A stretch of 34,456 bases of DNA. Origin: Pseudomonadota bacterium. Lineage in GTDB: Bacteria; Myxococcota_A; Polyangia; Haliangiales; SHYZ01. Where the stretch lies: assembly GCA_043801535.1 (NCBI GenBank), contig JAZDLZ010000765.1, positions 1 through 34,456 on the forward strand, given 5' to 3'. The position numbers were made by a program, and so were the translations under genes. The notes under the pieces were generated by a model. That model saw only the letters and a program-made list of their open reading frames with translations. It ran no database searches and was not told the origin of the DNA. Shown here piece by piece: positions 196 through 19,451 of this stretch (position 1 is the stretch's first letter; every line of letters starts with the position of its first letter).

Positions 196-221
196 CATGC
201 TCGACGGGAAGGGCCTAAGAT

Positions 222-2790: not shown

Positions 2791-2804
2791 ATAGAGAGTG
2801 CGCA

Positions 2805-3571: not shown

Positions 3572-3630
3572 GGATGAGCACGTCCGAGACCCCGTCGAGA
3601 GTAGACCAAGCGGGGTGGTAGAGTACGACC

Positions 3631-4377: not shown

Positions 4378-5014
4378 GCGCAAGATTCGCATCGAGTACA
4401 TGCCACTGTCACAAGTCGTGCGAGCGCCGCGCAATCCGCGCTGGCATGCGGACAAGGACATTCAGGCGAGCATCGAGGCGTTTGGCTACGTCCAGCCAGC
4501 AATTCTCGATGAGAGAACGGGCAAGCTGGTGGCAGGCCACGGCAGACTGGATGCGTTGCTGGCCATGAAGCAGGAAGGCAAGCCGCCGCCTCCAGGAATC
4601 GCAGTCACTCCCGACGACTGGAAGCTCCCAGTCATTCGTGGCGTCTCGTTCCGCACGCAGGAGGAGGCCGAGGCCTTCTTGCTCGCCGACAATCAGACGA
4701 CTGTTTTAGGCGGGTGGCACGACGACAAGCTGGCAGCCATCCTCAAGGATCTCCAAGCGTCCGACCAGGCAATCATCGGATGGGCACAGGAAGAAGTTGA
4801 TGTTTTGCTGGGTGCGGACCTCGAGCTAGAAATTCCAACACTAGACGACCCATCACCCGACGATGGGTTGCGCGAGTACAAGTTTCGCGTTTCCGAGGAG
4901 GAGACAGCCACCGTCGATCGTGCGTTTGTCGCGCAACGCGGAAAGCGACGGGAAGCTGATGATGCCAGGCTATTCGTCGCCATCTGTCGGGCTTTTCTGA
5001 AACTGCCGGAATGA
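4349..5014 (+). CDS. ParB/Srx-fold (ParB-like nuclease domain) protein
   Basis: IRIEYMPLSQVVRAPRNPRWH ... KLVAGHGRLDAL matches ParB N-terminal domain motifs (NPR, GHxR). It overlaps the GT2 3' end by 29 nt. The start is uncertain (ATG 4400 is an alternative). Confidence 0.6.
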   Translation: MGAAKTKSDERKIRIEYMPLSQVVRAPRNPRWHADKDIQASIEAFGYVQPAILDERTGKLVAGHGRLDALLAMKQEGKPPPPGIAVTPDDWKLPVIRGVSFRTQEEAEAFLLADNQTTVLGGWHDDKLAAILKDLQASDQAIIGWAQEEVDVLLGADLELEIPTLDDPSPDDGLREYKFRVSEEETATVDRAFVAQRGKRREADDARLFVAICRAFLKLPE

Positions 5015-6555
5015 CTCCGATGGAAGCCGGCATCATTACGTTTGGTCATGCCAACAGTCACGGCAAGAATCAAGTCAAAAACGAGCTGGGGCAGGGCCCG
5101 CACATCGTGCGTCAGTGCTGCCTCGAGGCTGGTATTTCTGTCCACAATTTGCACGAGCGATGGCATCGGTGTGATGTCGTTATGGTCGGACTCTACTGGT
5201 GGGAGCATCTCTACGACCTGGTGCTCTGGCTCGCTGCGCATGGAATCGAGCCGGATCGAGAGAAGCGACGGAAGGCAGGCGGTCCGCTCGTATTCATCGG
5301 TGGACAACTGCCCAGCTACAACCCATCCACTGTGGCTGCTATCGCTGATCTGGTGTGCATCGGCGATGGCGAATCGGCTGCGCCAGCAGTGCTATCCCTG
5401 ATTCGCGCCGGCGCTCCTCCATCAGAGTGGGCAAGCGTGCCAGGCATCTACGTATCCGAGCTCGACAATTGCGCAGAGTGGCAGCATGTCGACGATGTCT
5501 CAGGCACGATTCGCTGGCCATTCTACAATTCGACGCTGGTCGAGCATGACAGCGGGGTCCATCAGAAGCTCGTCTTCGAGCGACGAATTGAGATAGCCCG
5601 TGGCTGTCGGCACAAGTGTGCCTACTGCGGAGTCGGGTGGACAAAACGCTACCGTGAGGTGTCGACCGCGGAAATCTGCGGGGCAGTCGCGAGCACGCCA
5701 GGGATGATCAAGGCCTTCGCGCCAGACCCTCTGGCGCATTCTGGCTGGGATGAAATCGACGCTACGTTTGTCGAGTATGACAAGAGCAACCAGGCACGGG
5801 ATATCTCGGCTCATACAATTCTGACCAAGGGATTCGGTCGTTCGAGGATTTACACCACTGGCATCGACGGGCTGTCCGAGAGACTTCGACGAGCAGTGAA
5901 CAAACGGCTGTCGCAAGATGAGCTTGTCGAGGTACTAGAGCGGACATCCGGGCATGGCGGACAACTCATGATCTACATGATTCTTGATTTGCCAGGCGAA
6001 ACAGAGGCTGACTATCGTGAGTGGTTCGCGTCCTTGTCGCGGGTGCAGGTCCGTACCCGGCCCCCGAGTGGTAGATTTGCTTCAGGCGACGAACGCGATT
6101 TCTACGTCGCTATGACGCTCACTGCGTTCAATCCGACGCCTCACACTCCATTGCAATGGGAAGGCATCGACATCCACAAGCAGTGCTACGATTGGTATCG
6201 ACAAGCATTGGACGTGGGACTCGTCGACAAGAGTCAGCGACGGCTCAAGCACAAGATACTCGGCCGTCCGCATGGAGGCGCTGCACGACTGCTCGAGGCG
6301 GCCGCCCTCCGCGGGGACAGAGAGCTCGGTCGGTTTGTCTTGCGAGTCGCTGCTGTTCGACATCGGTTCAAGACATCGTCGCAGGTTCTGACTGCCGCTG
6401 ACAGACTGGGCGTGGGCGAGGCCTTGCACAACACCGTGAGGCGTCATTCTCTCGACGAGACCTTGCCCTGGGAAAGACGAGTCCGCCCGCTGTTCGGGCG
6501 TGACACGCTGCAACGGGCGGCTCTCAAGTTCCGCAACATCGTCGGACAGCTATAG
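5011..6555 (+). CDS. Radical SAM enzyme with an N-terminal B12-binding-like domain
   Basis: IARGCRHKCAYCGVGW contains the CxxxCxxC 4Fe-4S motif. The N-terminal VFIGGQLPSYNP...VCIGDGESA resembles the Rossmann-like B12-binding domain of class B radical SAM enzymes. ATGA overlap with the previous ORF at 5011-5014. Confidence 0.7.
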   Translation: MTPMEAGIITFGHANSHGKNQVKNELGQGPHIVRQCCLEAGISVHNLHERWHRCDVVMVGLYWWEHLYDLVLWLAAHGIEPDREKRRKAGGPLVFIGGQLPSYNPSTVAAIADLVCIGDGESAAPAVLSLIRAGAPPSEWASVPGIYVSELDNCAEWQHVDDVSGTIRWPFYNSTLVEHDSGVHQKLVFERRIEIARGCRHKCAYCGVGWTKRYREVSTAEICGAVASTPGMIKAFAPDPLAHSGWDEIDATFVEYDKSNQARDISAHTILTKGFGRSRIYTTGIDGLSERLRRAVNKRLSQDELVEVLERTSGHGGQLMIYMILDLPGETEADYREWFASLSRVQVRTRPPSGRFASGDERDFYVAMTLTAFNPTPHTPLQWEGIDIHKQCYDWYRQALDVGLVDKSQRRLKHKILGRPHGGAARLLEAAALRGDRELGRFVLRVAAVRHRFKTSSQVLTAADRLGVGEALHNTVRRHSLDETLPWERRVRPLFGRDTLQRAALKFRNIVGQL

Positions 6556-6568
6556 AACCATCTGACCC

Positions 6569-6877
6569 ATGCGTATACTGGTACGTATGGTCAGCAAGTA
6601 TCCTCGAGCCGGCAGACAGCGTCTCCAGGTGGTTTGCGATCAATCCGAGATCGCAGCAATCGACGCTGCGGTAGCGCGTGACGGCTACGACGGAGACAGG
6701 TCCGCGTGGATTCGTGAGGCGGCATTGGACAAGGCTCGCAAGGCCGAGAGCATCTCGATCCTGCCAGAGGTATCAGCCGAAATCAGACGACGCGCCAACG
6801 CTGCTGGCGTCGATGCCAGAGACTTTGCGACGCTGTTAGCGGGCATCGTGCTCGGGAAGGCGGCTCAGCGTGGCTAA
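6569..6877 (+). CDS. Small ribbon-helix-helix-like (CopG/Arc-type) protein
   Basis: RLQVVCDQSEIAAIDAAVARDGYDGDRSAWIREAALDKA fits a beta-strand/helix/helix RHH pattern. The start is uncertain (ATG 6569 or ATG 6587). An imperfect palindrome spans both candidate starts. Confidence 0.4.
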   Translation: MRILVRMVSKYPRAGRQRLQVVCDQSEIAAIDAAVARDGYDGDRSAWIREAALDKARKAESISILPEVSAEIRRRANAAGVDARDFATLLAGIVLGKAAQRG

Positions 6878-7373
6878 GCCGTATTGTCATACCGTGCCAG
6901 CCAAGGCGACGCATCACGTCGAGGTGGCGCAGCAGTACCTCGAACGTGGGCACCGAGACAGCATAGTCGTCCAGTTGCTCGCGAAGTCCGAAGGCATTAC
7001 GAAGCGGCAGGCCTATCGGGTGCTTGGCAAGGCTTGGCAGGTGCTGATTTCGCAACACGCGAAATCAGCGCACCTAGACGCAACTCGACTGGAGAATGCG
7101 CTCGAGACGCTCCTGGAGCACGCGCTCGTGGAGGCCTCCAAGGGTGACGTTCGGGCAATCGTGGCTGGCACGAATACCGCCATGTCATTGGCCAAGCTGC
7201 GAGGACTGATTGTTGACCGCAGTTCTGTCAGGGTCGACGTGCGTCAGCAGGTCGAGGAGAAGGTCACGCAGATGACGACTGCGGAGCGCCATGCTCGCAT
7301 TCAGCAGCTCCTCACCGAGGCTGGTATGGTGGCAGCATCCAATGGCAGTGTCAGCCCGACAGATTCTGCCTGA
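6870..7373 (+). CDS. Putative terminase small subunit
   Basis: It sits immediately upstream of, and overlapping, the large terminase. The N-terminus is HTH-like (EGITKRQAYRVLGKAWQVL). GTG start at 6870. The call rests on position and motif only. Confidence 0.45.
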   Translation: MAKPYCHTVPAKATHHVEVAQQYLERGHRDSIVVQLLAKSEGITKRQAYRVLGKAWQVLISQHAKSAHLDATRLENALETLLEHALVEASKGDVRAIVAGTNTAMSLAKLRGLIVDRSSVRVDVRQQVEEKVTQMTTAERHARIQQLLTEAGMVAASNGSVSPTDSA

Positions 7374-8754
7374 GTCGAGCTTGCTCGAGCTCGAGGCGTT
7401 GCTGCAACGCCAGAATGCCGTCGAGTCGCTGCCTGACTTCATCAGTCGAATGTTCCCGACTCAGCCAGCGCCAGCGCATGCTGCGCCAATTCTCGACGTG
7501 TTCGAGCAGGCTCGACGGAAGCCACAGCGGGTCTGCATCTCAATGCCTCCGCGCCACACGAAAACCACCATCATTCTGCGCGGATTCGCGTGGTGGTTGC
7601 ACAATACTCCGGCGGATACCTGCGCCTACGTGAGCTATTCCGATCGGCAGGCGAGATCCAAGTCGCGCCTGGCTCGCTCATGGGCAGGGCAGGCAGGTTT
7701 GCGGCTAGCACCCGATTCCCACAACATGGCAGAGTGGCGCACGCTCCAAGGTGGCGGGCTGCTCTCCTGTGGAGCTGGTGGCGGTATCACGGGGCAGGGA
7801 GTTTCGGGAATTTTTGTTGTCGACGATCCGTACAAGAATCGGCAAGAAGCGGACAGCATTGTCATCCGCGAGCGAATCGAGCAGTGGTTCAACGAGGTCG
7901 TCTTTACCCGACTCGAGGGTGCGTCGGTAATCGTCGTCCATACCAGGTGGCACGAGAATGATCTCATTGGCACGCTGGCCGAGCAGGGCTGGCGAATAAT
8001 CAACCTGCCGGCAATCGCCGAGGATGACGACCCGCTGGGCAGGGTTCCAGGCGAGGCACTCTGGCCGGCAAAGTTCGATCTGGACACGTTGCATTCGATT
8101 CGCAAGCAGATCAACGATTGGTCATTTGCTGCGCTCTATCAGGGCAGACCGCGGCCGAGAGGTGCTAGCGTCTTCGGGCAGGCGAGTTACTACGATCCAG
8201 AAAAGTTCGACGCAAGGGGATGCCGTATCGTCATCGGCTGCGACCCAGCAGCGACGGCAAAGACCCAGGCAGATCACAGCGTGGCAGTGGTGCTCGCCAT
8301 GCGTGGACATGGCGACAAGGCAATCGGTTATGTCCTCGACATGTGGCGTGGGCAGGTCGAGATTCCCGCGCTGGTCGGCCACCTGCGCAGCCTGTCCGAC
8401 CGCTGGTGGCATGCGCCAGTTGTCGTCGAGGCGATGGGTGGATTCAAGGCGGTGCCGCAGATTCTGCGGCAGCTCGATAGCCGGCTGCAAGTGCGAGAGG
8501 CGAAGGTTACTGAAAGCAAGTTTTTGCGCGCTCAAGCTGTCGCCGCGGCGTGGAATGGTGGACGGCTGCTGGTGCCCACCAAGGCGCCATGGCTCAAGAC
8601 CATGCTGTCCGAGCTCCAGCGGTTCACGGGTGTGAGTGATGCCGAGGATGACATCGTCGATGCTCTGGCGCATGCCTACAACGCTTTGTCTACGTCGAGC
8701 ATGTCCGTAGCAGCTCCAGACGTCAGCCTTACTCAATCGTCGTGGGCGAAATGA
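7342..8754 (+). CDS. terL: Terminase large subunit
   Basis: Walker-A-like ISMPPRHTKTT, Walker-B IFVVDDPY, the coupling motif VVHTRWHENDLIG, and a C-terminal RNaseH-like nuclease region (IVIGCDPAATAK...). The longest ORF starts at 7291; ATG 7342 is preferred. Confidence 0.85.
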   Translation: MAVSARQILPESSLLELEALLQRQNAVESLPDFISRMFPTQPAPAHAAPILDVFEQARRKPQRVCISMPPRHTKTTIILRGFAWWLHNTPADTCAYVSYSDRQARSKSRLARSWAGQAGLRLAPDSHNMAEWRTLQGGGLLSCGAGGGITGQGVSGIFVVDDPYKNRQEADSIVIRERIEQWFNEVVFTRLEGASVIVVHTRWHENDLIGTLAEQGWRIINLPAIAEDDDPLGRVPGEALWPAKFDLDTLHSIRKQINDWSFAALYQGRPRPRGASVFGQASYYDPEKFDARGCRIVIGCDPAATAKTQADHSVAVVLAMRGHGDKAIGYVLDMWRGQVEIPALVGHLRSLSDRWWHAPVVVEAMGGFKAVPQILRQLDSRLQVREAKVTESKFLRAQAVAAAWNGGRLLVPTKAPWLKTMLSELQRFTGVSDAEDDIVDALAHAYNALSTSSMSVAAPDVSLTQSSWAK

Positions 8755-8770
8755 TGCGTCTGACCATGGC

Positions 8771-10081
8771 TTGGCTCATGGTAGCCTAGTCGACGTGAGC
8801 AAGTCCGACATGCCCGAGAATGCGTCTCGTTTGGCCGAAATAGGTTCTGCTGGTCTCGAGATCTACGGTGGTCAGATTTCCGAAGAGTTCCTACCTGAAC
8901 TCTCCGGCGGCAAGGCGCTCAAGATTTACCGTGAGATGTCGAGCAACGACCCGATGGTCGGCACGGTACTCTTCGCGATCCAGATGCTCATCCGCCAGGT
9001 CGACTGGACGGTGAAGGAGGCCTCGCAGGATCCGGCAGACCTGCAAGCCGCGGAGTTCTTGCGCACTTGCCAGTACGACATGAGCCACACCTGGGACGAG
9101 CTGATCGTCGAGGTGTTGTCCATGCTCACCTACGGATTCAGCCTGCACGAGACGGTCTACAAGCGTCGAGCAGGCATGAAAACCAAGGTGCCGTCGAGGT
9201 ACGATGACGGGCGCATTGGTTGGCATCGGCTGCCGATTCGAGGACAGACCACCATCTGGCAGTGGGAGATGGACGAAAACGCCGCAGATTTGCTGGGCGT
9301 GTGGCAACAGTCTCCACCGACGTGGAAACGTGTGTTCATTCCGTCGGAGAAGCTGCTCCTCTTCCGACCAAAGGGGCACAAAAACAACCCCGAAGGATGC
9401 AGCATCCTGCGCACTGCCTATCGACCCTGGTATTTCAAGACTCGCGTCGAGAATTTCGAGGGAATCGGACTCGAGCGAGACTTGGTCGGGTTACCCGTCG
9501 CCAAGATTCCGGCCTATCTGCTGCGGTCGGACGCCTCATCGGAAGACAAGGCTGTGCTGGCAGCCTTCAAAAGGCTGGTCACGCAAGTCCGGCAGAACGA
9601 GCAGGCGGGAGTCATCATGCCGCTCGAGTACGACGAGAATGGCAACGAGCGCTTCAAGCTCGAGCTTATGTCTGTCAACTCCCGTCGGCTGTTCGATACC
9701 TCGGCGATCATTCAGCGCTACGACCAGCGCATTGCTATGTCGGCGTTGGCCGACTTCGTGTTGCTCGGACACGAGAAGGCTGGCAGTTTCGCGCTGGCCG
9801 ACTCCAAGACCGATGTGTTCGGGGTCGCGCTAGGTGCATGGCTCGGAGCGATTCAGGACGTGCTCAATCGGCAGGCTGTGCCGCGTTTGTTTGAGCTCAA
9901 CCCGGAATTCAACCTCGATGCATTGCCGACGTTCCAGCATGGGGATGTCGAGAGCGTGGATCTCACTGCGCTGTCTGTCTTCGTCACTGCGATGACTGGG
10001 GCTGGTTTCGAGATGACCGACCTCGAGGATCACCTGAGACGGCAGGCTGGCATGCCACTGCGAGAGGCCGACGAGCAGTGA
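8771..10081 (+). CDS. Portal protein (Mu gp29 / DUF935-like)
   Basis: It lies between terL and the Mu-F-like gene. HTWDELIVEVLSMLTYGFSLHETVYKRR...GRIGWHRLPIR resembles the DUF935 portal core. The start is uncertain (TTG 8771 or ATG 8810). Confidence 0.75.
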   Translation: MAHGSLVDVSKSDMPENASRLAEIGSAGLEIYGGQISEEFLPELSGGKALKIYREMSSNDPMVGTVLFAIQMLIRQVDWTVKEASQDPADLQAAEFLRTCQYDMSHTWDELIVEVLSMLTYGFSLHETVYKRRAGMKTKVPSRYDDGRIGWHRLPIRGQTTIWQWEMDENAADLLGVWQQSPPTWKRVFIPSEKLLLFRPKGHKNNPEGCSILRTAYRPWYFKTRVENFEGIGLERDLVGLPVAKIPAYLLRSDASSEDKAVLAAFKRLVTQVRQNEQAGVIMPLEYDENGNERFKLELMSVNSRRLFDTSAIIQRYDQRIAMSALADFVLLGHEKAGSFALADSKTDVFGVALGAWLGAIQDVLNRQAVPRLFELNPEFNLDALPTFQHGDVESVDLTALSVFVTAMTGAGFEMTDLEDHLRRQAGMPLREADEQ

Positions 10082-10968
10082 GCAGGCGGGCTTTACCGAT
10101 TCGCTCCATTCAGACGATCAGGCAATGGCGGGACATTCTCAGTGCAGCCAGGATCCAAACTGCCATTGGTGCGCGGATGATCGAGAATGCTTTGCTCGAC
10201 ATGCGCGACCGTTTAACCGTCGAGCGGATCGAGGAATGGATAAGGGGACGGCTCAAGAAAGCCGGCGATGATTTGCTGATCGATGCCATTCCGCTGAAGG
10301 GCACCTTTATGACGTTCACCGATGGTGCTCTTTTTGCCGGTCGGACGACAGCGGGCAAGCATGCCATCGAGATGATTGGGTCATCCGTCGGACGATTCGT
10401 GCATCGAGTCACTCCGTCGGAACGTGGCGCGAAATGGGCCGACCGCAGAGCGGCCGACCTCGTTGTGCAAATCAGCGAAGGGACCCGAGACGCACTACGG
10501 CGCATCGTGTCCATGGACAATCGCCGTGGAATCCATCCCAACAGTACGGCTAAGGCAATTCGTGCAGTCATCGGTTTGGATGAGCGTCGAGCAATCGCAG
10601 TCGAGAACTACCGGCTAAAACTGCTCGACGACGGGATGTCCGAGGACAAGGTTCTCGTTCGCACAATGCGGTTCGCGGAGACCAAGATCACTGAGCGAGC
10701 TCGGGTCATTGCCCGCACCGAAAGCATGGCAGCGGTACACGAGGGGCGGCTCGACCTCTGGCACGAGCTGGCTGATGCCAAGGTGGTGCCGAGCGACAAG
10801 ATTCAGCGCGAGTGGGTCTCTGCCCGTGATGAGCGTGTCGACGATGAGTGCCTGGAACTCGACGGGAAAACCGCGACTTTGCGGGGAGACTTTCCGGGCG
10901 GAGCCCATGATCCCCCGCTCCATCCGCAGTGCCGATGCACGACCATGATTACCGTGGAGGGCTACTGA
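10078..10968 (+). CDS. Head morphogenesis protein (SPP1 gp7 / Mu F family)
   Basis: ARTESMAAVHEG...REWVSARDERVDDECLELDGK...PPLHPQCRCT is the hallmark C-terminal motif of this family. GTGA overlap with the portal gene. Confidence 0.85.
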   Translation: MSRRALPIRSIQTIRQWRDILSAARIQTAIGARMIENALLDMRDRLTVERIEEWIRGRLKKAGDDLLIDAIPLKGTFMTFTDGALFAGRTTAGKHAIEMIGSSVGRFVHRVTPSERGAKWADRRAADLVVQISEGTRDALRRIVSMDNRRGIHPNSTAKAIRAVIGLDERRAIAVENYRLKLLDDGMSEDKVLVRTMRFAETKITERARVIARTESMAAVHEGRLDLWHELADAKVVPSDKIQREWVSARDERVDDECLELDGKTATLRGDFPGGAHDPPLHPQCRCTTMITVEGY

Positions 10969-11543
10969 TGCCGATACCGATTCCTGGAAAAAACGAGAAG
11001 CAGGAAGCGTTCATGACACGCTGTATGTCAGCGGAGATGATGCAGCGCGAATACCCGGAGCAGGAGCAGCGGACAGCGGTGTGCATGACGCAGTGGCGTG
11101 ATGCGCACGACGAGGCCCGCAAGGCTGCTGTCGTGCTGGTCCGGGCTATACCTGCGAAGCCTCTGCTGTTCGACGAACGCATGGACATGGTGGCGCCCAT
11201 CGTGTGTGCCGATGACGAGAAGCGCCTGGTCTACGGACTTGTCTACGCGCCAGACGACGAGGATACGCATGGCGATTCAGCCGATGCAGATGAGATCGAG
11301 GCTGCGGCGCATGGCTTCATGGCCAGTCGCGTGGTCGGACTTCAGCACAAGGCGAAGGCTCCTGCGTCGGTCGTCGAGAGCTACATTGCTCAGGCTGACA
11401 TGCCGCTCGGGAAAGAGCAGATCAAGAAAGGCTCCTGGCTCGTCGTGCTCAAGATCGAGGATGACAACCTCTGGAAGGCGGTCAAGGATGGCACCTTCGA
11501 CGGTATCTCGATGGGCGGTTCGGCTCGACGGGTGAAGGAATAG
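10968..11543 (+). CDS. XkdF-like putative prohead protease / head maturation protein
   Basis: VYGLVYAPDDEDTHGDSADADEIEAAAHGFM...VVESYIA...GISMGG matches the PBSX XkdF-type domain. TGATG junction with the previous gene. The longest ORF starts at 10929. Confidence 0.65.
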   Translation: MPIPIPGKNEKQEAFMTRCMSAEMMQREYPEQEQRTAVCMTQWRDAHDEARKAAVVLVRAIPAKPLLFDERMDMVAPIVCADDEKRLVYGLVYAPDDEDTHGDSADADEIEAAAHGFMASRVVGLQHKAKAPASVVESYIAQADMPLGKEQIKKGSWLVVLKIEDDNLWKAVKDGTFDGISMGGSARRVKE

Positions 11544-11548
11544 CCTGC

Positions 11549-11863
11549 ATGCCAATCAGCTCGTCGGAGATTGCTCAACGTGTGGGCGTCTCGGTCCGCT
11601 ACCTCAACAAGCTTGTCCGTTGCGGATTGGTGCAGCCGTCGAAACAGTCACGCAAGCAGGGTTCGCCTGCGGAATGGGCGGAAGAGGACGTGGCCAAGGT
11701 CGTGCTCGCCGTGCGCATCAAGCGGGTGTTGAATCGGTTTTCCAAGGTGCGTCTTGATGCTTCGGTGTTGGAAGATTTGGACGACCGAGCAATTGCAGTC
11801 GGGGAGCAGTTTCTTCGAGAGCTCGACGGTCAATCAAAGATAGTCATCCCACAGGAGTCATGA
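11549..11863 (+). CDS. MerR-type HTH protein
   Basis: ISSSEIAQRVGVSVRYLNKLVRCGLVQP fits the MerR N-terminal winged-HTH pattern. 104 aa. Confidence 0.5.
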   Translation: MPISSSEIAQRVGVSVRYLNKLVRCGLVQPSKQSRKQGSPAEWAEEDVAKVVLAVRIKRVLNRFSKVRLDASVLEDLDDRAIAVGEQFLRELDGQSKIVIPQES

Positions 11864-12840
11864 TGGTCATCGCATACGTCGGCAACTTCGAGGCTCGTAC
11901 TCCAAGTGGTGAGTTGTTCTCGACGGAATCTCACCTGTCCGCATCGCTCGAGCAACTCGGGCATACCGTCGTGCGGCTCCAGGAAAATCGTGTCACCGCA
12001 GAGCAGGTGGCGTTTCGCGTCCGCGAGTGCGCGGCGGATCTTTTTCTGTGGACGAAGACCGGGGAATGGCTGCGTGGCGACCGCGAGGAGATGCTGCGAG
12101 TCATCAAATGTCCAACGGTAGCATATCATCTGGATCTTTACGCTGGGCTCCCGCGGTCGGCTAACGTGGACAGTGAGCCATGGTGGCGGTGCAAGTACGT
12201 GTTCACTGCCGACGGCGGCAGCGATGACTTCTGGCGTGAGCATCGGATCAATCACTACTGGGCGCCACCAGGAGTCTACGGCAAGGAGTGCTATCTCGCA
12301 GAGCCGGGACCCGAGCGATACGATGTCATCTTCGTAGGCTCCGGGAAAAACGGATACCATCCGGAATGGCCATACCGCAAGCAGCTCCTCGACTGGCTAG
12401 CCAACACCTACGGAGAGCGATTCGTCCTCTTCGGGCGCGGCGGTGAGCTGGAGTGCGTGCGCGGGGCAGCGCTCAATCAACTCTACGCGAGCGCGAAGGT
12501 GGTCGTCGGAGATTCGCTGTGCCTAGGATTCCAGCACCGACGGTACTGGAGCGATCGGGTGCCAGAGACGCTCGGGCGGGGAGGCTTTCTCATCCATCCG
12601 GCAGTCTCGGGGCTCGAGCAGTTTTTCCGCAATCGTGAGCATCTGGTCACCTACGACTATGGCGATTTCGACGGACTCAAGCAGACGATCGACTACTACC
12701 TAGCTCACGACGAGGAGCGTGAGACTATCCGGTTAGTCGGTCACGAGGAAGTGAAGTCGCGGCACACTTACGCCAATCGTATGGCGTGGATGCTCGAGAC
12801 AGTGCGGCGGTCGGAGACCAGGGTCGACGTGATGCTATGA
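11860..12840 (+). CDS. CgeB-like / Glyco_trans_1_2-type glycosyltransferase
   Basis: VIFVGSGKNGYHPEWPYRKQLLDWL...LYASAKVVVGDS...RVPETLGRGGFLIHP...DYYLAHDEERETI...SRHTYANRM follows the CgeB-family C-terminal pattern. AGGAG lies at 11853-11857 and there is an ATGA overlap. Confidence 0.65.
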   Translation: MMVIAYVGNFEARTPSGELFSTESHLSASLEQLGHTVVRLQENRVTAEQVAFRVRECAADLFLWTKTGEWLRGDREEMLRVIKCPTVAYHLDLYAGLPRSANVDSEPWWRCKYVFTADGGSDDFWREHRINHYWAPPGVYGKECYLAEPGPERYDVIFVGSGKNGYHPEWPYRKQLLDWLANTYGERFVLFGRGGELECVRGAALNQLYASAKVVVGDSLCLGFQHRRYWSDRVPETLGRGGFLIHPAVSGLEQFFRNREHLVTYDYGDFDGLKQTIDYYLAHDEERETIRLVGHEEVKSRHTYANRMAWMLETVRRSETRVDVML

Positions 12841-13634
12841 GAGATTTTCGGCCGACATCAGCGAAGGCGGAATGGCATCTCACGTATCGTTGCACCTTGC
12901 GGTGCAATGGATGCAGTCGGGCTACGTGGCTGGCGAAGCCGCACACGGAGGACATGACGCTCGACGATGCCCGTGAATGGTGCAAGCAGGCCGACGAGAT
13001 TGGATGGAAGCGTTTTCAGCCCACGAAGGAGAACGCTCGAATCATCCTCATCGGTGGCGAGCCGACGGTGCATCCGGATTTCATGGAGTTCGTGCAGCTC
13101 GCTATGGAGTGGTCGGGCGCGTATGTCCAAGTCTATTCCAATGGGTGGTCAGCCCAGACAAGGGCTCTGCTCGAGCACGCCAGGATTCATCACAGCGCGT
13201 CGATCGAACGGAGTAACGCGAAGCCACGAGGTAGCGTGACTGGCCCAGAGTGGGCTGGCTGGCGGCTAGACATGTACGTCAGCCCAGCAGACGCTGGGGT
13301 ACCAAGTCCTCCGTGCTATGTCCATCCGTCGGAAATCTGCGGGCTCGGAATCGATCACGAAGGATATTCGATGTGTCCAATCGGAGCGTCGGTGCGGGCA
13401 TTGCTGGGATTACCGCGGACACGACGATTCGCCGATCTGTTCGACATCGACCTTGCCGCGCGCATGACCGCGGAGGAGTGCTCGCATTGCGGATACGAGT
13501 ATGCCAAGCGTGCGGCGTCCAATGAGCACAAGGAGAGATTTGCGGCTTATGTCGCGCAGTGTCCGACGATGCAGGGGTGTTTGATGTCTCCGACGTGGCA
13601 GTCGGTTTTCCAAGGACGTGAGGTCAAGAAATGA
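12837..13634 (+). CDS. Radical SAM enzyme (possible SPASM/twitch-like Cys-rich C-terminus)
   Basis: HLTYRCTLRCNGC contains CxxxCxxC, followed by IILIGGEPTVHPDF. The C-terminal cysteines are CYVHPSEICG...SMCP...CSHCG. ATGA overlap at 12837-12840. Confidence 0.75.
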   Translation: MRDFRPTSAKAEWHLTYRCTLRCNGCSRATWLAKPHTEDMTLDDAREWCKQADEIGWKRFQPTKENARIILIGGEPTVHPDFMEFVQLAMEWSGAYVQVYSNGWSAQTRALLEHARIHHSASIERSNAKPRGSVTGPEWAGWRLDMYVSPADAGVPSPPCYVHPSEICGLGIDHEGYSMCPIGASVRALLGLPRTRRFADLFDIDLAARMTAEECSHCGYEYAKRAASNEHKERFAAYVAQCPTMQGCLMSPTWQSVFQGREVKK

Positions 13635-14359
13635 AGCGCATCACAATGGCAGGATTCTCGACGATGATTCCAGACCATCGTGCCGACTGGGATGGATGGG
13701 CGGAATGGGAGCGGGTTCGCTTCGAGTCGATGGCGCACAACCTCATCAAAGATGATGTTCTCTACGACGTGGGCGCTGAGTACGGAGACATGTCAGCGAT
13801 TTACGCTCAGATGGCAGGCAGCCTGTGTCTCTTCGAGTCGGAACCGGCGGTGTGGCGCAATATTCGCCATGTCTGGGATGCTTCCGGGTTACAGCCTCCG
13901 CGAGCTTGTTACGTTGGTCTTGTCGGAGAGCAGACCACAGACCCGGTTGCACAGGACTTCGACGGGCGGATCCGTGCCGGCTGGCCAGAGTGCGCGTGGG
14001 TAGACAGTATTTGGCCAGATTGGACGTTTCGCTATTTGCATTACGCATCTCATGTAGCTTCGACGCCGCAGACTCGCCTTGATGACTGGGCGGATCGGTC
14101 GGGCATCTTACCGACAGTGATCACGATGGATATCGAGGGCGCAGAGCTACTGGCGTTGCGCGGTGCTAGCCGGCTGCTCGAGCAATACCATCCGATGGTG
14201 TACGTATCCATCCATCCCGATGCGATGGAGCGGGACTACCATCAGAGCGATGCCGATCTGCATGCGTACATGCGAGATCTGGGGTATGCCGGCACGCATC
14301 TAGGCACTGATCACGAGCAGCACTGGGCGTTCACCGCAGGTGGGAGGCCGCTCAGGTGA
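13631..14359 (+). CDS. FkbM-family SAM-dependent methyltransferase
   Basis: VLYDVGAEYGDMSAIYA...LFESEP and ITMDIEGAELLALRGASRLL...VYVSIHP match Methyltransf_21/FkbM motifs. ATGA overlap. Confidence 0.7.
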   Translation: MKRITMAGFSTMIPDHRADWDGWAEWERVRFESMAHNLIKDDVLYDVGAEYGDMSAIYAQMAGSLCLFESEPAVWRNIRHVWDASGLQPPRACYVGLVGEQTTDPVAQDFDGRIRAGWPECAWVDSIWPDWTFRYLHYASHVASTPQTRLDDWADRSGILPTVITMDIEGAELLALRGASRLLEQYHPMVYVSIHPDAMERDYHQSDADLHAYMRDLGYAGTHLGTDHEQHWAFTAGGRPLR

Positions 14360-16074
14360 CCCGAGTGCTCTGGCCATGGGCGGCCTGCAATCATTGGGAC
14401 CAGGCCATGCTGCGCGATTTGTTCGCCGGTCGTCTCTGGCCGATGGCAGAGCCTTTCGTCGATGAGATGGAGCCGACGCGAGGCGGCGAAGGCGCAGTGG
14501 TGGTCTGCTCCGGGGCGTTGCTGGCAGAGCGAGGAGATCAGGAGTTGCGCGCTTTGCTCGGGGTGTTGCCATGGGCGATTTTCGTCCACACCAGCGACGA
14601 AGTGATGCTGTTCGATTCGTCGAAGTTGGCTCGAGAAGCGCGGGTGAAGGTCTGGTGCCAGACACCTCGATTCGATCGTAATTACAGCGACCGCAAGCTG
14701 CTCATTGGATGGCCGCCTGCCACGCGGGATATCGTCGAGAGATTGCCACGGTTGCCGTTGGCAGATCGTCCGTTACTGTGGGCGTTCCAAGGTCAGAGCA
14801 ATCACGTTCATCGGCAGCGCATGGTCGACGTGTTGGGCAAGCGTAATGACGGGCGACTGGTCGTCACGGGGGGATTCGCTCAGGGCAAGCCGAGACCGGA
14901 ATACCTGGCCGATCTGGGGCAGGCTCGCATTGTGCCGTGTCCGTCGGGGCTGTGGACGCCAGACAGCTTCCGCATGGCCGAGGCGCTCGAGGCAGGCTGT
15001 TTGCCCTGCGTCGAACGCAGGTCTCCGCAGTGGAAGGGAGGCGGCAACTTTTGGCAGTTTGCGTTGAACACGCAACCAATGCCTTGCGTCAAGGACTGGA
15101 CCGAATTACCGCGGATCCTTGACGGATACCGAAGCAATCCTGTTGCGTTGCAGCGAGATGCCAATCGAGCTGCGGCATGGTGGCTGGGCTACAAGCGTCA
15201 GCTAGCGTGCAACTTGCTCGACGATGTCGAGACGCTATCTGGCAAGCCACCAGAGCCATTGCACCAGGTGACAGTGTTGATGCCGACCAGTTCCATACCG
15301 TCGCACCCATCCACTGCTTTTATCGAAGATGCGATTACCAGGCTGCGGGCATATCCAGAGATGGCCAATGCCGAGGTCATCATCATGGTCGACGGGTTGC
15401 ACGCCAGCCATCGTTTCCGATCTGCTGACTACGAGGAGTACAAGCGTCGGCTGATCGACCTCTGCTCATGGGATCCGAGATTCCGTGGTTGCCTGCCACT
15501 CGTGTTCGACGAGCACACGCATCAAGCCAACATGACGCGCCTGGCGCTCGAGCTTGTGCGGACTCCCCTCGTGTTTTTCCAGGAGCATGATACCTGGCCG
15601 TGTTGGGACATCGACTGGGTTGGCTTGAAGCGGGCATTCTGGGTTGGTCGTGGCGTGAACATGATCACGCTGCATATCGACCATCAAGTGCTCGACGAGC
15701 ACAAGTATCTCACGTTGGGTGACGTCGAAGACATCAACGGAGTGCCGTTGTTACGTCATTGCAAGTGGAGCCAGCGCCCGCATATGGCTAGTACGTCGTG
15801 GTATCGCGGAATCCTCGCTGAGTTTTTCGGCAGGAACGCGCGTACCATGATCGAAGACGTCATGTGGGGTATAGTTTCGACGAGAGTGCAGGCAGACAAG
15901 GCAGCGTGGGGGAGATTTGGGTTGTGGATGTATCACCCCGACGATTCTGTGCATGGTGTTTTGCGTAGTCAAACCAGAGATGGCCGAGCGGGCGAGGCAA
16001 AGGTTCCGCTCGTCATTGCCTACGACGGAATGCCTCCGGAATGTGCGCCTGTCCCGGGAGTCAAGCGATGGTAG
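14356..16074 (+). CDS. Two-domain putative glycosyltransferase (exostosin/GT47-like N-terminal half, GT-A-like C-terminal half)
   Basis: LLWAFQGQSNHVHRQRMV...ARIVPCPSGLWTPDSFRMAEALEAGCLPCV resembles the exostosin-type pattern. VTVLMPTSSIPSHPSTAFIEDAITRL...EVIIMVDG resembles a GT-A N-terminus. GTGA overlap. Confidence 0.5.
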   Translation: MTRVLWPWAACNHWDQAMLRDLFAGRLWPMAEPFVDEMEPTRGGEGAVVVCSGALLAERGDQELRALLGVLPWAIFVHTSDEVMLFDSSKLAREARVKVWCQTPRFDRNYSDRKLLIGWPPATRDIVERLPRLPLADRPLLWAFQGQSNHVHRQRMVDVLGKRNDGRLVVTGGFAQGKPRPEYLADLGQARIVPCPSGLWTPDSFRMAEALEAGCLPCVERRSPQWKGGGNFWQFALNTQPMPCVKDWTELPRILDGYRSNPVALQRDANRAAAWWLGYKRQLACNLLDDVETLSGKPPEPLHQVTVLMPTSSIPSHPSTAFIEDAITRLRAYPEMANAEVIIMVDGLHASHRFRSADYEEYKRRLIDLCSWDPRFRGCLPLVFDEHTHQANMTRLALELVRTPLVFFQEHDTWPCWDIDWVGLKRAFWVGRGVNMITLHIDHQVLDEHKYLTLGDVEDINGVPLLRHCKWSQRPHMASTSWYRGILAEFFGRNARTMIEDVMWGIVSTRVQADKAAWGRFGLWMYHPDDSVHGVLRSQTRDGRAGEAKVPLVIAYDGMPPECAPVPGVKRW

Positions 16075-16288
16075 CGGATCTGGCGCGGTGGGCGAAGGTA
16101 GCGACTGAGCCGTCGCCATGGACAAAACGGATAAATCCACTGCGACTTTCGGTATCGATCCGTTGACACGCAGCTTCGGACGGACTCGGACGGACGACCG
16201 AGCCGTCGGACATCGTGAGTGGCGCATGTCGTTACAAGCGGCCGGGGCTCGAGGGAATCAAAAAACGTCTACGGGAGGCTTTCCTTCG

Positions 16289-17173
16289 ATGAAGATCGTG
16301 TTGGTGTCGAATGACAATGGTCGCGGGTTGAGTCGAGACCTCGCCATCGTGTCAGACCTGGCACGTCGTGCGGGGCATTCCGTGCGTGCCGTCAATTTTA
16401 AAATCATCGATCCTGCGTTGCGCGGTGACTTAGTCATTTGTTTGGAAACAGCGCCCATGAAAGCGCTGGCGGTAGCGCTGGTGCGCTGGTGCGTGCCCAA
16501 TCCTGAATGGTGGCCACAGGCGATGCCGGTGCAGGCCTTCGACCGGATCCTGTGCAAAACCCACGAATCGTTGCGGTTATTCGAGGCTATCACTGACAAG
16601 GCTGAGCTAGTCGGATTCACCGCCCGAGACCGGTACATCGCAGACGTACCGCGAGAGCGCGCCTTCCTGCACGTCGCGGGCAAATCGATCATGAAGGGCA
16701 CGGATGCCATCCTCGCTGCCTGGAAGCAGTTCCATATCGATCAACCATTGACCATAGTCAGCTCGTCGAGATTCAAGGAATCAATCCCGGGCGTCAGATA
16801 CCTCGATTGGCTCGACGATGCAGCACTCAAATCAGAGCAAAATCGCAACCTCTTCTACCTGGCGCCCTCGCAGACCGAAGGCTACGGGCACTCTCTGCAC
16901 GAGGCGGCGTCGTGCGGGGCAGTCATTGCCCGCAGCGAATGGTCACCGATGGATGAGGTCCCTGGCGTGTCCATGCACGCGGAGGCAGGCCGGCCAATGC
17001 GGCTAGCTCGGACATGTCGCGTTTCGTCAGGTGCGATTCGAGATGCCGTCGAGAGCTGCCTAGCCATGGACGGCGGACAAATCGTCGCTCTGCGAGCCAA
17101 GACTCGTGAGAGCTACGTTCGAGAACGCGCCGCCTTCGAGTCTCGATTTCTCCACCTGCTAGCGACTATCTGA
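16289..17173 (+). CDS. GT-B fold (GT4/GT1-like) glycosyltransferase
   Basis: The MKIVLVSND start is preceded by GGGAGG (16274-16279). FLHVAGKSIMKGTD... and PSQTEGYGHSLHEAASCGAVI match the E-x7-E-type GT-B C-terminal motif. The longest ORF starts at 16118, but that extension has low GC3 (about 56% by hand count). Confidence 0.7.
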   Translation: MKIVLVSNDNGRGLSRDLAIVSDLARRAGHSVRAVNFKIIDPALRGDLVICLETAPMKALAVALVRWCVPNPEWWPQAMPVQAFDRILCKTHESLRLFEAITDKAELVGFTARDRYIADVPRERAFLHVAGKSIMKGTDAILAAWKQFHIDQPLTIVSSSRFKESIPGVRYLDWLDDAALKSEQNRNLFYLAPSQTEGYGHSLHEAASCGAVIARSEWSPMDEVPGVSMHAEAGRPMRLARTCRVSSGAIRDAVESCLAMDGGQIVALRAKTRESYVRERAAFESRFLHLLATI

Positions 17174-17215
17174 CATCCTCGACGCAAGACCAACTTACGC
17201 AGGGTATATGACCGT

Positions 17216-17243
17216 TTGACTTGGCCGACGTTGGCCAAGTCAA
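17216..17243. promoter_or_regulatory. Perfect 11-bp inverted repeat (TTGACTTGGCC-GACGTT-GGCCAAGTCAA); candidate intrinsic terminator or operator
   Basis: The arms at 17216-17226 and 17233-17243 are exact reverse complements with a 6-nt loop, followed by CTTCTTTCT. It lies in the 101-bp gap between the GT cassette stop (17173) and the scaffold start (17275). Confidence 0.4.
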
Positions 17244-17274
17244 CTTCTTTCTGACATGGCCTGACTATGGGTCT

Positions 17275-18039
17275 ATGAGCAACAAGCTCAAGGACCTGCG
17301 GATCGTCGAGGTGAGCCTTGTAGACCGGGCTGCCAACAAGCGCCCGCTACTATTGCTGCGTAGCGCCGAAGCAGAGCAGCCAGCGATCGAGCTTCCCGAG
17401 GAGCTCTTGCCGGCGCTCGAGAAGGCCGCTGCCGATGGCTCGCTCCTCGAGATGCTGCATGCGAAAGGACAGCCGATGGCGAAGGATGCGACCGAGGCTA
17501 CCGTCGACAAGTCGAAGGAGACTGGCATGGATAGATCTGAGTTCGAGACGCTGGCCAAGGCGAATGCCGAAGCCAAGGTGCAAATCGAGATGCTGGCCAA
17601 GGCGAATGCCGAAGCCAAGGCGCAACTCGAGGAATTCACCAAACGAGCTGAATCGGCTGAAGCCAAGCTCGTTGCCGAAATCGGCGAGCGCAGACGGCGA
17701 GACGCTGTCGTCAAAGTGGAAAAGTCCTATCCGCATCTCGACGGTGTCAAGGTCGTCTCGCAGCTCCTCAAGGCTGAGATGCGTGGTGCCGACGATGTCA
17801 AGGAACTCGACGAAATTCTGCTTCAGGCAGAGCTTTTGGCCAAGAGCGGCTTCCGCGAGATTGGCTCGAGCGCTGTTGGTATCAGCGGTGCCAGTGACGC
17901 CTGGTCGAGAATCGAGGCTGGCGGTGCTGCGATTCAGAAGTCGGCTACTGACTTGACCAAGGAGCGGGCGATCGATCAGTTCCTGCGCACCAGCGAGGGT
18001 CGAGCGCTCTACCGTGAGTACGAGGCAACGCGCCAGTAG
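17275..18039 (+). CDS. Scaffolding protein
   Basis: It sits just upstream of the decoration and capsid genes. It is Ala/Glu/Lys-rich and coiled-coil-like, with a tandem LAKANAEAK(V/A)Q(I/L)E repeat. SLVDRAANKRP is N-terminal. The longest ORF starts at TTG 17221, inside the inverted repeat. Confidence 0.65.
   Translation: MSNKLKDLRIVEVSLVDRAANKRPLLLLRSAEAEQPAIELPEELLPALEKAAADGSLLEMLHAKGQPMAKDATEATVDKSKETGMDRSEFETLAKANAEAKVQIEMLAKANAEAKAQLEEFTKRAESAEAKLVAEIGERRRRDAVVKVEKSYPHLDGVKVVSQLLKAEMRGADDVKELDEILLQAELLAKSGFREIGSSAVGISGASDAWSRIEAGGAAIQKSATDLTKERAIDQFLRTSEGRALYREYEATRQ
17551..17634 (+). repeat. In-frame 42-bp tandem duplication inside the scaffold gene
   Basis: CTGGCCAAGGCGAATGCCGAAGCCAAGG is identical at 17551-17578 and 17593-17620. 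The two units encode LAKANAEAKVQIEM and LAKANAEAKAQLEE. Confidence 0.9.
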
Positions 18040-18059
18040 GCGCGGAAAGGATTCGCGCC

Positions 18060-18446
18060 ATGGCAATCGAGATTCCTGGACTGAAGGCTGGTGCCTGGGT
18101 CGCCAATGCGACGCTGGCAGCCAATCAATTCTACGCCGTCAAGATGGGCAGCAATGGCAAGTGGGCCGTCGCTAGCGCAGGACAGCGCACCATCGGGGTC
18201 GCGCAGAACACGCCGGCGGCTGATGAACCCGTCGATGTCATGATGTCCGGATTCACCAAGGCCTACGCCGGCGGCACCATCACCTGCGGCGACGCGATAG
18301 CCGTCAATTCGTCCGGTCAATTCGTTTCCGCTGGAGACAACGACTACCAGGTGGGCGTGGCGTTCGAGAGCGCCGTCTCTGGTGAGTACTTCACCCTGTA
18401 CTTGTCCGGCGGACAAGGGCTGACGGAGTCCACGTCGCCGGCCTAG
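18060..18446 (+). CDS. DUF2190-like head decoration / capsid cement protein
   Basis: 128 aa, located between scaffold and major capsid. LAANQFYAVKMGSNGKWAVAS...IGVAQN...GDAIAVNSSGQ matches the DUF2190-type pattern. Confidence 0.55.
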   Translation: MAIEIPGLKAGAWVANATLAANQFYAVKMGSNGKWAVASAGQRTIGVAQNTPAADEPVDVMMSGFTKAYAGGTITCGDAIAVNSSGQFVSAGDNDYQVGVAFESAVSGEYFTLYLSGGQGLTESTSPA

Positions 18447-18464
18447 CCGGTAGGAGGATTTGAG

Positions 18465-19451
18465 ATGCCGCAACCGACTAGCAGCATGGTTCATGTCAAT
18501 CGGCCGCTGACCAATATCAGCGTCGCGTACATGCAGGCGGCGGTGAACTTCATCGCCGACCGTGTGTTTCCGATCGTGCCAGTGGCCAAGCAGAGCGATC
18601 GGTACTTCAAGTACGCTCGCGATGATTGGTATCGTGACGAGGCCAAGGTCAGAGCACCAGCGTCGGAGTCCGCAGGTAGCGGGTTCGAGATCGACAACAC
18701 GCCGACGTACTTCTGCCCCGTCACGGCATTCCACAAGGATGTCGACGACCAACTCCGCGCGAATGCCGACCCACCGATCGATCCCGACCGGGATGCGACG
18801 CAATTCGTCAGTCAGAAGCTCCTGCTCAAACGCGAGGTGGACTGGGCAGGTGCATTCTTCGCTGCGAGCGTCTGGGCTGGCAGCACGACTGCTGCCGACC
18901 TCGTGGGCGGCGTGGACTTCGTGCAGTGGGGGGACAATGACTCCACTCCCATCGAGGACATCTCGGCACAGATTATTCACGTCGCGAGCAAGACGGGTTT
19001 CAAGCCCAATAAGTTCGTCTGCTCGCCGAAGGTCATGAACGCGCTCAAGCAGCATCCGTCGATTCTCGACCGCGTCAAGTACACCCAGAAGGGCGTGGTC
19101 ACCGCGGATCTGATCGCTGGATTGCTCGGCGTCGAGGAAGTGCTCGAGGCGTGGGGCGTCAAGAATTCCGCAGCGGAGAACGGCACCGAGAGCACCGACT
19201 TCATCGTCGGCGCAAATGCCATGCTCTGCTACGCAGCTCCATCGCCGTCCATTCTGGCGCCGTCCGCCGGCTACACGTTCACTTGGACTGGGCTTCTTGG
19301 ATCTGGAGCCTACGGCAACCTGATCAAGAAATTCCGTCGAGAGGAGCTCGAAGCCGACCGCATCGAGGGAGAGATGGCCTACGACCATGTCGTAGTCGCA
19401 TCGGAGCTCGGTGTCTACTTCTCGGGCGCCTTCTCCGCCTTCAGCGACTAG
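18465..19451 (+). CDS. Major capsid protein (HK97 fold, lambda gpE-like family)
   Basis: Position and size (328 aa) fit. FPIVPVAKQSDRYFKYARDDWYRDEAKVRAPASES...YFCPVTAFHKDVDDQLRANAD resembles the Phage_cap_E-type N-terminal region. Confidence 0.8.
   Translation: MPQPTSSMVHVNRPLTNISVAYMQAAVNFIADRVFPIVPVAKQSDRYFKYARDDWYRDEAKVRAPASESAGSGFEIDNTPTYFCPVTAFHKDVDDQLRANADPPIDPDRDATQFVSQKLLLKREVDWAGAFFAASVWAGSTTAADLVGGVDFVQWGDNDSTPIEDISAQIIHVASKTGFKPNKFVCSPKVMNALKQHPSILDRVKYTQKGVVTADLIAGLLGVEEVLEAWGVKNSAAENGTESTDFIVGANAMLCYAAPSPSILAPSAGYTFTWTGLLGSGAYGNLIKKFRREELEADRIEGEMAYDHVVVASELGVYFSGAFSAFSD

Follow-up and report, generated by a model that had tools for sequence, protein, structure and literature searches.

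A glycosyltransferase, radical SAM and methyltransferase cassette in the head operon of a contractile-tailed phage belongs to a widespread module that may glycosylate head proteins

Gene content of the cassette and its place in the head operon

The window analysed here, the whole 34,456-nucleotide stretch of contig JAZDLZ010000765.1 (assembly GCA_043801535.1), holds the late region of a contractile-tailed phage, and our subject is a six-gene cassette of predicted glycan enzymes that lies amongst its head genes. All listed genes are on the + strand, in the order TnpB-like gene, family 2 glycosyltransferase (GT2; 3631-4377), ParB-like gene, B12-type radical S-adenosylmethionine (SAM) gene, large terminase (7291-8754), Mu-type portal, MuF and XkdF-type prohead protease (10929-11543; PF14550, E 2.6e-32), followed by the cassette (11549-17173) and then by the scaffold-like gene (17275-18039), cement protein, E-type major capsid protein, sheath, tube, tape-measure and baseplate genes. 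The original prediction, made from the letters of the window, that six co-oriented open reading frames (ORFs) separate the protease from the scaffold, cement and capsid genes holds, as does its chaining of the first five of them, with ATGA/GTGA overlaps found at four of the five junctions. The GC content is flat, at 0.59-0.61 both inside the cassette and in its flanks, and a promoter scan detected no promoter-like site within it. The cassette is part of the late head operon, and its translationally coupled genes are flanked by those for the protease and the scaffold. None of its proteins has a typical hydrophobic 19-residue transmembrane segment, all are predicted to be soluble, and neither a flippase nor a polymerase gene is present in the cassette.

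Three of the six genes form a core that recurs elsewhere. Core gene 1 (11860-12840, +) encodes a CgeB-like GT-B glycosyltransferase (GT) of the Glyco_trans_1_2 (GT1_2) type, which, as had been called, passes the PF13524 cut-off (82.2 bits against 25) and also matches phrog_28745 (E 1e-54). Core gene 2 (13631-14359, +) is an FkbM-family SAM methyltransferase, again as proposed, passing the cut-offs of both TIGR01444 (51.6 bits against 37.7) and PF05050 (34.8 bits against 22.7). Core gene 3 (14356-16074, +) encodes a 572-aa protein, a putative bifunctional GT with a GT47/exostosin-like GT-B domain (~aa 1-295) and an SpsA-like GT-A domain (~aa 300-572); its AlphaFold2 model (pLDDT 92.6) shows first a GT-B and then a GT-A domain and so bears out the two-domain organisation first suggested.

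Searched at full length against the PDB with Foldseek, the 572-aa model has human EXT1/EXT2 and EXTL3 as its best matches (E 1e-9), the N-terminal domain matches the fold of chlorovirus A075L, and the C-terminal domain those of SpsA, PmHS2 (heparosan synthase) and K4CP (chondroitin polymerase). Amongst sequence profiles, the match to RXYLT1_C is borderline (27.3 bits, cut-off 27), Pfam Exostosin_GT47 stays below its cut-off (21 bits against 33.4), and a PDB profile search gave E 0.08 with A075L, which is not significant. The likeness to exostosins, as modelled, is best taken as an architectural resemblance and not as established family membership, since the full-length TM score is ~0.3 (identity ~11%) and the Pfam GT47 score is under its cut-off. 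All 38 of the family-wide invariant residues are kept in the window protein. This unnamed family comprises at least 649 proteins after clustering at 90% and, at 50% identity, 751 clusters (E ≤ 1e-30); it is found on 152 IMG/VR contigs, and at some of the loci fetched for comparison (L numbers; here L190-L193, L234 and L239) its two domains are encoded as separate genes. An exact-sequence look-up of the 572-aa protein returned nothing on record, and single-sequence scans of IMG/VR with this GT and with the radical SAM enzyme likewise gave nothing, alignment queries being needed for matches.

Between core genes 1 and 2 lies an accessory tailoring gene (12837-13634, +) for a 265-aa, predicted twitch-type radical SAM enzyme with the motifs CxxxCxxC and GGEP and five further invariant cysteines. 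Its start is most likely the ATG at 12837 (265 aa) and not the GTG at 12786, which yields the gene's ATGA overlap; such overlaps lie on both of its sides. The radical SAM assignment, initially based on CTLRCNGC, stands: PF04055 matches with E 4e-6, the motif is present and the AlphaFold2 model (pLDDT 94) matches radical SAM cores, whilst the single-sequence PF04055 score, 27.4 bits, is slightly below the 29.5 cut-off. In a family alignment of 29 sequences C19, C23, C26 and GGEP are invariant, as are five extra cysteines C-terminal to the core (C160, C168, C180, C215 and C218), in the pattern C-x2-H-x4-C-G-x3-D-x2-G-Y-x2-C ... C-x2-C-G. Motifs and model together predict a twitch-type enzyme with an auxiliary Fe-S cluster. 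The top PDB match is SpeY, a twitch radical SAM dehydrogenase (E 6e-6), which has in common with the window enzyme a radical SAM core, a carbohydrate-related context and, as far as this is predicted for the window enzyme, a short, cysteine-rich C-terminal auxiliary-cluster domain; however, the TM score is only 0.45-0.50, the identity 13-15%, and the window enzyme belongs to a family with its own invariant cysteine pattern. BtrN is a twitch radical SAM carbohydrate dehydrogenase. Matches of phmmer to PDB sequences are confined to the core domain, and a fold search in BFVD gave no close viral structure (best TM 0.41). Viperin (pVip) was considered and rejected, as NF038283 scores 33 bits against a cut-off of 180 and aligns with the N-terminal core alone.

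The first cassette gene (11549-11863, +) encodes a 104-aa protein that had been called a MerR-type helix-turn-helix (HTH), a label that did not survive, as MerR_2 reaches 17.1 bits against a cut-off of 29 and neither PHROG nor NCBIfam gives a match. What is left is a small HTH-like protein, possibly a regulator, whose gene meets core gene 1 at an ATGA overlap and has a 45% identical homologue at the same position in one of two sister phages described below (L094). The last gene (16289-17173, +) matches Pfam weakly (E 0.005), yet its reading as a GT-B (GT4-like) GT was confirmed by phrog_2170, a PHROG glycosyltransferase family (E 2.5e-6), and by tblastn matches to annotated GTs of seven Streptomyces jumbo phages (E 4e-24), with alignments running from residue 1 of the protein started at 16289. 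This ATG (MKIVLVS, with GGGAGG upstream) is the most likely start rather than 16118, since this is where alignments with homologues begin (residue 56-58 of the 351-aa ORF); the homologues in the sister phages L094 and L174 are 42-43% identical and in the same position. The ~214 nt before it (16075-16288) appear to be non-coding or, if the gene starts at 16118, encode a disordered N-terminal extension. Outside the cassette, the upstream GT2 gene (3631-4377, +; PF00535, E 1e-10) was verified; it has a 47% identical homologue upstream of TerL in L094, others beside the module in L082 and L095, and possibly belongs to the same pathway. Four GT genes carrying five GT domains were counted in the window, in keeping with the minimum of four proposed at the outset.

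Downstream of the cassette, a perfect hairpin (17216-17243, +; 11-12 bp stem) is followed by a T-rich run, CTTCTTTCT, and could be a weak terminator or attenuator (region z-score -1.87); terminator-like sites across the region number 6 against 4.7 ± 2.3 in shuffles, which is no excess. The perfect 11-bp inverted repeat that had been read as the cassette's downstream boundary is real, but its reading as a mobile-element end was rejected: no partner repeat lies upstream, and neither L094 nor L174 has conserved the hairpin.

Sister phages, capsid relatives and the wider module

In both sister phages that we found, the cassette stands at the same site, with 42-64% amino-acid identity. The first, L094, shares 61% identity with the window in the terminase, 63% in the portal, 58% in the sheath and 61% in the XkdF protease, after which the HTH gene likewise comes next; its order is XkdF, HTH, GT1_2, FkbM, 572-aa GT, GT-B, scaffold, with the GT2 upstream of the terminase. 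The second, L174 (sheath 62% identical), was binned with an Acidimicrobiaceae metagenome-assembled genome (MAG) and at its contig end shows 572-aa GT, GT-B and scaffold. L094 has no radical SAM gene, with a polysaccharide pyruvyl transferase and an extra class-I methyltransferase (11758-12555, 13298-13996) instead. Tailoring genes are thus swapped between close relatives, a pattern typical of surface-glycan diversification.

More distant relatives were compared through 80 IMG/VR loci with a capsid 45-56% identical to that of the window, and none of the cassette genes was found in any of them. In most, the cement and capsid genes follow within ~1 kb of the protease, whilst some carry other cargo near MuF/XkdF, such as an ADP-ribosyltransferase, a GNAT acetyltransferase or HNH/DUF6321 proteins between XkdF and the scaffold. 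Cassette-free relatives show what had been expected of them, with protease, scaffold, cement and capsid genes mostly contiguous or with other cargo at the site, and the MuF/XkdF region looks like a cargo hot spot in the wider group. XkdF itself is fused to or flanked by cargo in L003, L009, L015, L062, L070 and L075, this set including Zeta toxin, ferritin, uracil-DNA glycosylase and NUDIX plus methyltransferase as fused domains, as well as ADP-ribosyltransferase, GNAT and HNH/DUF6321/DUF5872 proteins; cargo at MuF/XkdF probably consists of effectors delivered by the capsid.

The original prediction took the cassette for a moron-like insertion, and its absence from the 80 capsid-relative loci agrees with this. 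However, it lacks a promoter of its own, shows no GC anomaly, is translationally coupled and occurs in both sister phages, so that of the marks by which a moron is known, namely a promoter and a terminator of its own, a deviant composition and a lack of counterparts in close relatives, only the downstream hairpin fits. From flat GC, missing promoter, translational coupling and shared site, the cassette appears to be an old, stably inherited resident module with variable tailoring genes and no sign of recent acquisition.

The order GT1_2, FkbM, 572-aa GT is also conserved in most of a further 80 IMG/VR loci fetched for the module (58 groups at 90% identity), often with a second methyltransferase in between. 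A GT-B gene follows the trio in 70 of them and a GT2-like gene is present in 32, but BLASTP did not support the last GT and the GT2 of the window as orthologues of these equally placed GT-B (c1) and GT2-like (c4) genes, hence only the trio is demonstrably conserved. Counted over 93 related loci, the CgeB-like GT is present in 71, nearly always upstream of FkbM and the 572-aa GT, and the FkbM methyltransferase in 64. A terminase, portal, protease, capsid or adaptor gene lies within 6 kb of the module in no fewer than 48 of the 80 loci, a minimum since the count was limited to clusters annotated in the analysis. In the commonest layout the module stands directly upstream of the terminase, portal-MuF, protease and capsid genes; elsewhere it comes after portal and protease, or between portal-protease and the head-tail adaptor. 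Amongst 20 full-length copies of the 572-aa GT in reference genomes, 12 are from Actinomycetota, including prophage-like regions of large Nocardia and Mycolicibacterium contigs, and 4 more from Saccharibacteria MAGs. The trio order is again found in Nocardia and Mycolicibacterium prophages, and carriers include prophages of the culturable Nocardia pulmonis CDC141 (NZ_JAMRXG010000006, 192.8-214.4 kb) and Mycolicibacterium moriokaense DSM 44221 (QQBJ01000015, 38.5-60.1 kb). As judged by gene content and order, the cassette belongs to a widespread and previously undescribed phage module; our literature search found no paper describing the exostosin-like GT or this radical SAM enzyme in bacteriophages.

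The radical SAM enzymes form a family of their own, of which a single-sequence search finds 33 members and a profile search at least 298, none of them named. Wherever enough flanking sequence is available, nearly every context has glycosyl enzymes as neighbours, almost always together with a SAM methyltransferase (L241 is unclear). The partner sets differ: an exostosin-like module in the window, L081, L082, L095/L236, L229, L234 and L239; GT1 or GT2 genes in L233, L240 and L242; a Stealth/GXM multi-domain protein in L243; and a GH130-methyltransferase pair, forming a GH130-methyltransferase-radical SAM triad, within three further unrelated head-module types, directly beside capsid genes. Two of these layouts run S78 protease / radical SAM, GH130, methyltransferase, HTH / HK97 capsid (L084, L230 and L231), and ClpP-capsid fusion, cement / GH130, methyltransferase, radical SAM / head-tail joining protein (L090, L091/L092 and L232). 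The suggestion that a radical SAM enzyme is unusual in such a cassette holds when set against described systems, but the enzyme is not a one-off, its family of at least 298 members nearly always adjoining phage glycosyl enzymes.

The small HTH genes in the GH130-containing modules of L084 (12554-12778), L230 and L231 are unrelated in sequence to the window gene at 11549-11863; a small HTH in both kinds of head-embedded radical SAM glycan module could regulate cassette or capsid genes. L086 (ENA k141_523339, 1-19203) is an integrase-bearing element with Alba, ERCC4, RtcB and NrdD-like genes besides the radical SAM enzyme and a GT of the 572-aa type, and may be an archaeal virus or plasmid; its Kdo-kinase-like gene, adenosine phosphosulfate (APS) kinase and sulfotransferase suggest a sulfated, methylated glycan. 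In the window, a second radical SAM gene (5011-6555, +) lies between the ParB-like gene and the terminase and encodes a 514-aa, B12-binding class-B enzyme (PF19864, PF04055, PF02310, weak TIGR03960). It is absent from L094 and every other fetched locus, and could be a C-methylating tailoring enzyme for the same glycan as the cassette, or unrelated.

A glycan on head proteins and competing readings

We consider it moderately probable that the cassette, as this phage's copy of the widespread module, serves to decorate head proteins, in the cytoplasm of the infected cell, with an oligo- or polysaccharide that is O-methylated and otherwise tailored. This retains the virion glycan of the original prediction as the best-supported reading, now on stronger comparative evidence, and drops the sheath and baseplate proteins it had named as candidate targets, as nothing points there. 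Two glycan modules with different enzymes, which have only the radical SAM family in common, have repeatedly settled in or beside the head genes of unrelated phages, and this placement, the translational coupling and the soluble proteins make cytoplasmic head glycosylation the simplest reading. We also count in its favour that the tailoring genes vary between sister phages, that a cement protein ending in SSPA/STSPA occurs only in the three cassette-bearing phages, that the fold matches are to enzymes that glycosylate protein shells or polymers (exostosins, A075L, SpsA), and that the hosts are mainly Actinomycetota, a phylum with reported virion glycosylation by phage GTs and O-methyltransferases. 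Two papers that both cite Freeman et al. 2023 report that such genes glycosylate capsid and tail-tube proteins of Actinomycetota phages (PMC11600133, PMC12619734).

In such a pathway the soluble GTs (the CgeB-like GT-B, the GT4-like GT-B and probably the GT2 at 3631) would draw on host nucleotide sugars, the exostosin-like two-domain GT would attach two different sugars, as a disaccharide or as a repeating unit, and the FkbM enzyme would O-methylate a sugar, perhaps capping the chain. A sugar carbon would be oxidised or epimerised by radical chemistry, the task of the twitch radical SAM enzyme; such sugar editing is its most likely role because glycosyl enzymes are its near-constant neighbours. 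The acceptor would be the assembling capsid. The most specific candidate is the exposed C-terminal Ser/Thr-Pro-Ala tail (...TESTSPA) of the cement/decoration protein (18060-18446, +; PF09956), and the alternative is the major capsid protein (18465-19451, +; Phage_cap_E type, PF03864), which has 293 IMG/VR relatives.

The closest precedent in gene content is offered by the mycobacteriophage virion glycosylation cassettes (Che8, cluster O/Corndog), which, as summarised in PMC11600133 and PMC12619734, share with the window tandem GTs plus an O-methyltransferase, and with the module actinobacterial hosts and a position beside or within structural genes. The window cassette likewise has tandem GTs and a methyltransferase linked to structural genes. 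The same papers report the glycans at the C-termini of capsid and tail-tube subunits, whereas the acceptor in the window is a candidate only. The enzymes themselves differ, as tblastn of the cassette's six proteins and of the GT2 against 50,697 records gave no match in any Mycobacterium phage, and the window set has an exostosin-like bifunctional GT, a CgeB-like GT and a radical SAM enzyme.

Other known systems resemble single parts of the cassette. Chlorovirus PBCV-1 (A064R, A061L, A075L, A111/114R) has soluble, cytoplasmic multi-domain GTs and methyltransferases that make a methylated glycan on its major capsid protein, and its A075L, implicated in capsid-glycan synthesis, is exostosin-like and amongst the top fold matches of the N-terminal domain of the 572-aa GT (PMC9614988). 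However, PBCV-1 is a giant virus of eukaryotes, its Vp54 glycans are N-linked, and its glycosylation genes are dispersed, expressed early and include none for a radical SAM enzyme. The exostosins EXT1/EXT2/EXTL3 have the same order as the 572-aa GT, a GT47-like GT-B then a GT-A domain, whereas the window protein is soluble and phage-encoded, and its polymerase activity putative; K4CP and PmHS2 also hold two GT activities per chain, but matched only its C-terminal GT-A domain. In Bacillus, CgeB and SpsA have been linked to the polysaccharide of the spore's outer, proteinaceous layers, with the enzymes active in the cytoplasm of the mother cell. By analogy, these layers would resemble a capsid as a glycosylated protein shell. 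The first GT of the cassette is clearly in the CgeB-like Pfam family and the GT-A domain has the SpsA fold, a resemblance at the level of family and fold only; the spore system differs in being a cellular, developmental one, whose acceptor and sugars may differ from those of the window.

Several points weigh against head-protein glycosylation. What the analysis shows is which genes the cassette holds, their modelled folds, and how gene order, spread across loci and nearness to head genes repeat; the case for a head glycan builds from there on guilt by association and fold similarity, and the glycan, its sugars, the acceptor and every enzymatic step and activity are predicted. The 572-aa GT matches exostosins in domain folds and their order only. 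The radical SAM gene also occurs in several non-structural contexts (L081, L082, L085, L086 and L088). The layout met most often puts the module just ahead of the terminase, at times with DNA methylase or ParB-like genes in between, a position that DNA-modification genes and morons favour. The cement tail SSPA/STSPA, present in 3/3 cassette-bearing phages and 0/41 cassette-free relatives, is a weak lead on the acceptor, a correlation confounded by phylogeny because it comes from three related phages. Lastly, amongst the 50,697 cultured-phage records of INPHARED, which are expected to include the experimentally studied mycobacteriophages, the cassette enzymes have no relatives except for both GT-B enzymes in Streptomyces phages: tblastn gave no match for the 572-aa GT, the FkbM enzyme or the GT2, and megablast none for the 11 kb around the cassette.

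In a bolder version of head-protein glycosylation, which we think unlikely, the exostosin-like GT would be a true polymerase, laying a repeating heteropolysaccharide on the cement or capsid protein, with an FkbM cap and with sugars edited by twitch radical SAM enzymes of a new class. If true, this would be a proteoglycan-like coat on a bacteriophage head, and polymer-coated capsids would be common in uncultured phages of Actinomycetota and Saccharibacteria.

Remodelling of the host envelope, named as the alternative in the original prediction, we judge unlikely. Temperate phages can carry O-antigen-modifying GTs, and on this reading the enzymes would modify a cell-wall or capsule glycan at the cytoplasmic membrane face through lipid-linked intermediates, resulting in a superinfection block or a change of serotype. 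Such a role would suit the integrated Nocardia and Mycolicibacterium prophages that carry the module, the established precedent of O-antigen GTs, and the versions with TagF-like glycerophosphotransferase, pyruvyl transferase, Stealth, sulfotransferase or Kdo-kinase-like genes, which are typical of cell-surface polymers. However, the cassette holds no transmembrane protein, flippase, polymerase or polyprenyl-phosphate GT, its genes are translationally coupled in a late head operon with no promoter of their own, and the repeated protease-capsid placement in unrelated head modules would have no rationale. Soluble, late-operon GTs would have to act on lipid-linked host intermediates, with no export genes in the cassette, and for this reason we set the envelope reading lower. 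A Gtr-type O-antigen system (GtrA/GtrB plus a membrane GT) was also rejected, as the cassette proteins have no transmembrane segment.

Most SPASM/twitch enzymes modify peptides, and the radical SAM enzyme could instead act on a head protein, where a thioether, epimerised or oxidised residue would serve as glycan attachment site or capsid cross-link. The predicted twitch/SPASM-like auxiliary cluster, the weaker fold matches to the peptide epimerase EpeE, ChlB and a sactipeptide synthase, and its direct contact with capsid or cement genes in L084, L090, L091 and L230-L232 agree with this. We nevertheless hold a protein substrate to be improbable: over at least five partner sets the constant neighbour is a glycosyl enzyme, usually with a SAM methyltransferase, and not one capsid type, the gene occurs far from structural genes in L085 and L086, the top structural match is a carbohydrate dehydrogenase, and no recognisable RiPP-recognition (RRE) domain was seen.

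Phage GTs that add diverse glycans to DNA, as a hypermodification, are also known (Pyle et al. 2024, cited in PMC12619734). Glycosylation of modified phage bases before packaging, with the sugar methylated or radically tailored for restriction evasion, would suit the commonest layout directly upstream of the terminase, sometimes with a DNA N6/N4 methylase or ParB-like nuclease gene. It is the least probable of these readings, as no hydroxymethyl-pyrimidine synthase or base-modification gene was noted in the window (a partial genome) or in the annotated neighbour clusters, though no search aimed at such genes was made, hypermodified DNA is uncommon in integrated prophages, which many of the carriers are, four or five GT domains plus methyltransferases exceed the known needs of DNA glycans, and the protease-capsid placement is at odds with an early or middle function.

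To our knowledge, phage virion glycosylation has been experimentally shown only for a few mycobacteriophages. If head proteins are the target here, the module indicates a second set of glycosylation enzymes, unrelated to that of mycobacteriophages and far more widespread, with a bearing on virion stability, on evasion of capsid-sensing defences or antibodies, and on which phages to select for therapy against actinobacterial pathogens. The analysis further delineates a new family of radical SAM enzymes, nearly always encoded beside phage glycan genes, and brings to light an exostosin-like domain architecture amongst bacterial viruses. The prediction is directly testable because carriers include prophages of culturable strains.

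Other features of the window

The scaffold-like protein (17275-18039, +) that borders the cassette downstream was assigned by position, coiled-coil composition and conservation, without a family match, and has 40-47% identical counterparts in L094 and L174; within its gene, at 17543-17631, lies a 42-nt (14-aa) tandem duplication with 93% identity. Rfam and tRNA scans of the whole window gave no matches. A 74-nt tandem repeat (3390-3573; 2.5 copies, 80% matches) lies between the ORF at 2932-3393 and the GT2 gene, and each of its units holds a small hairpin (AAGGCT..AGCCTT), with no Rfam match. At 955-2790 (+) the window encodes a 611-aa TnpB/Cas12f-like protein, large for TnpB, with a PF07282 TNB domain (E 5e-11) and a match to the transposase family phrog_506; a 645-aa, 29% identical relative lies just downstream of the glycan module of L081 (16359-18296).

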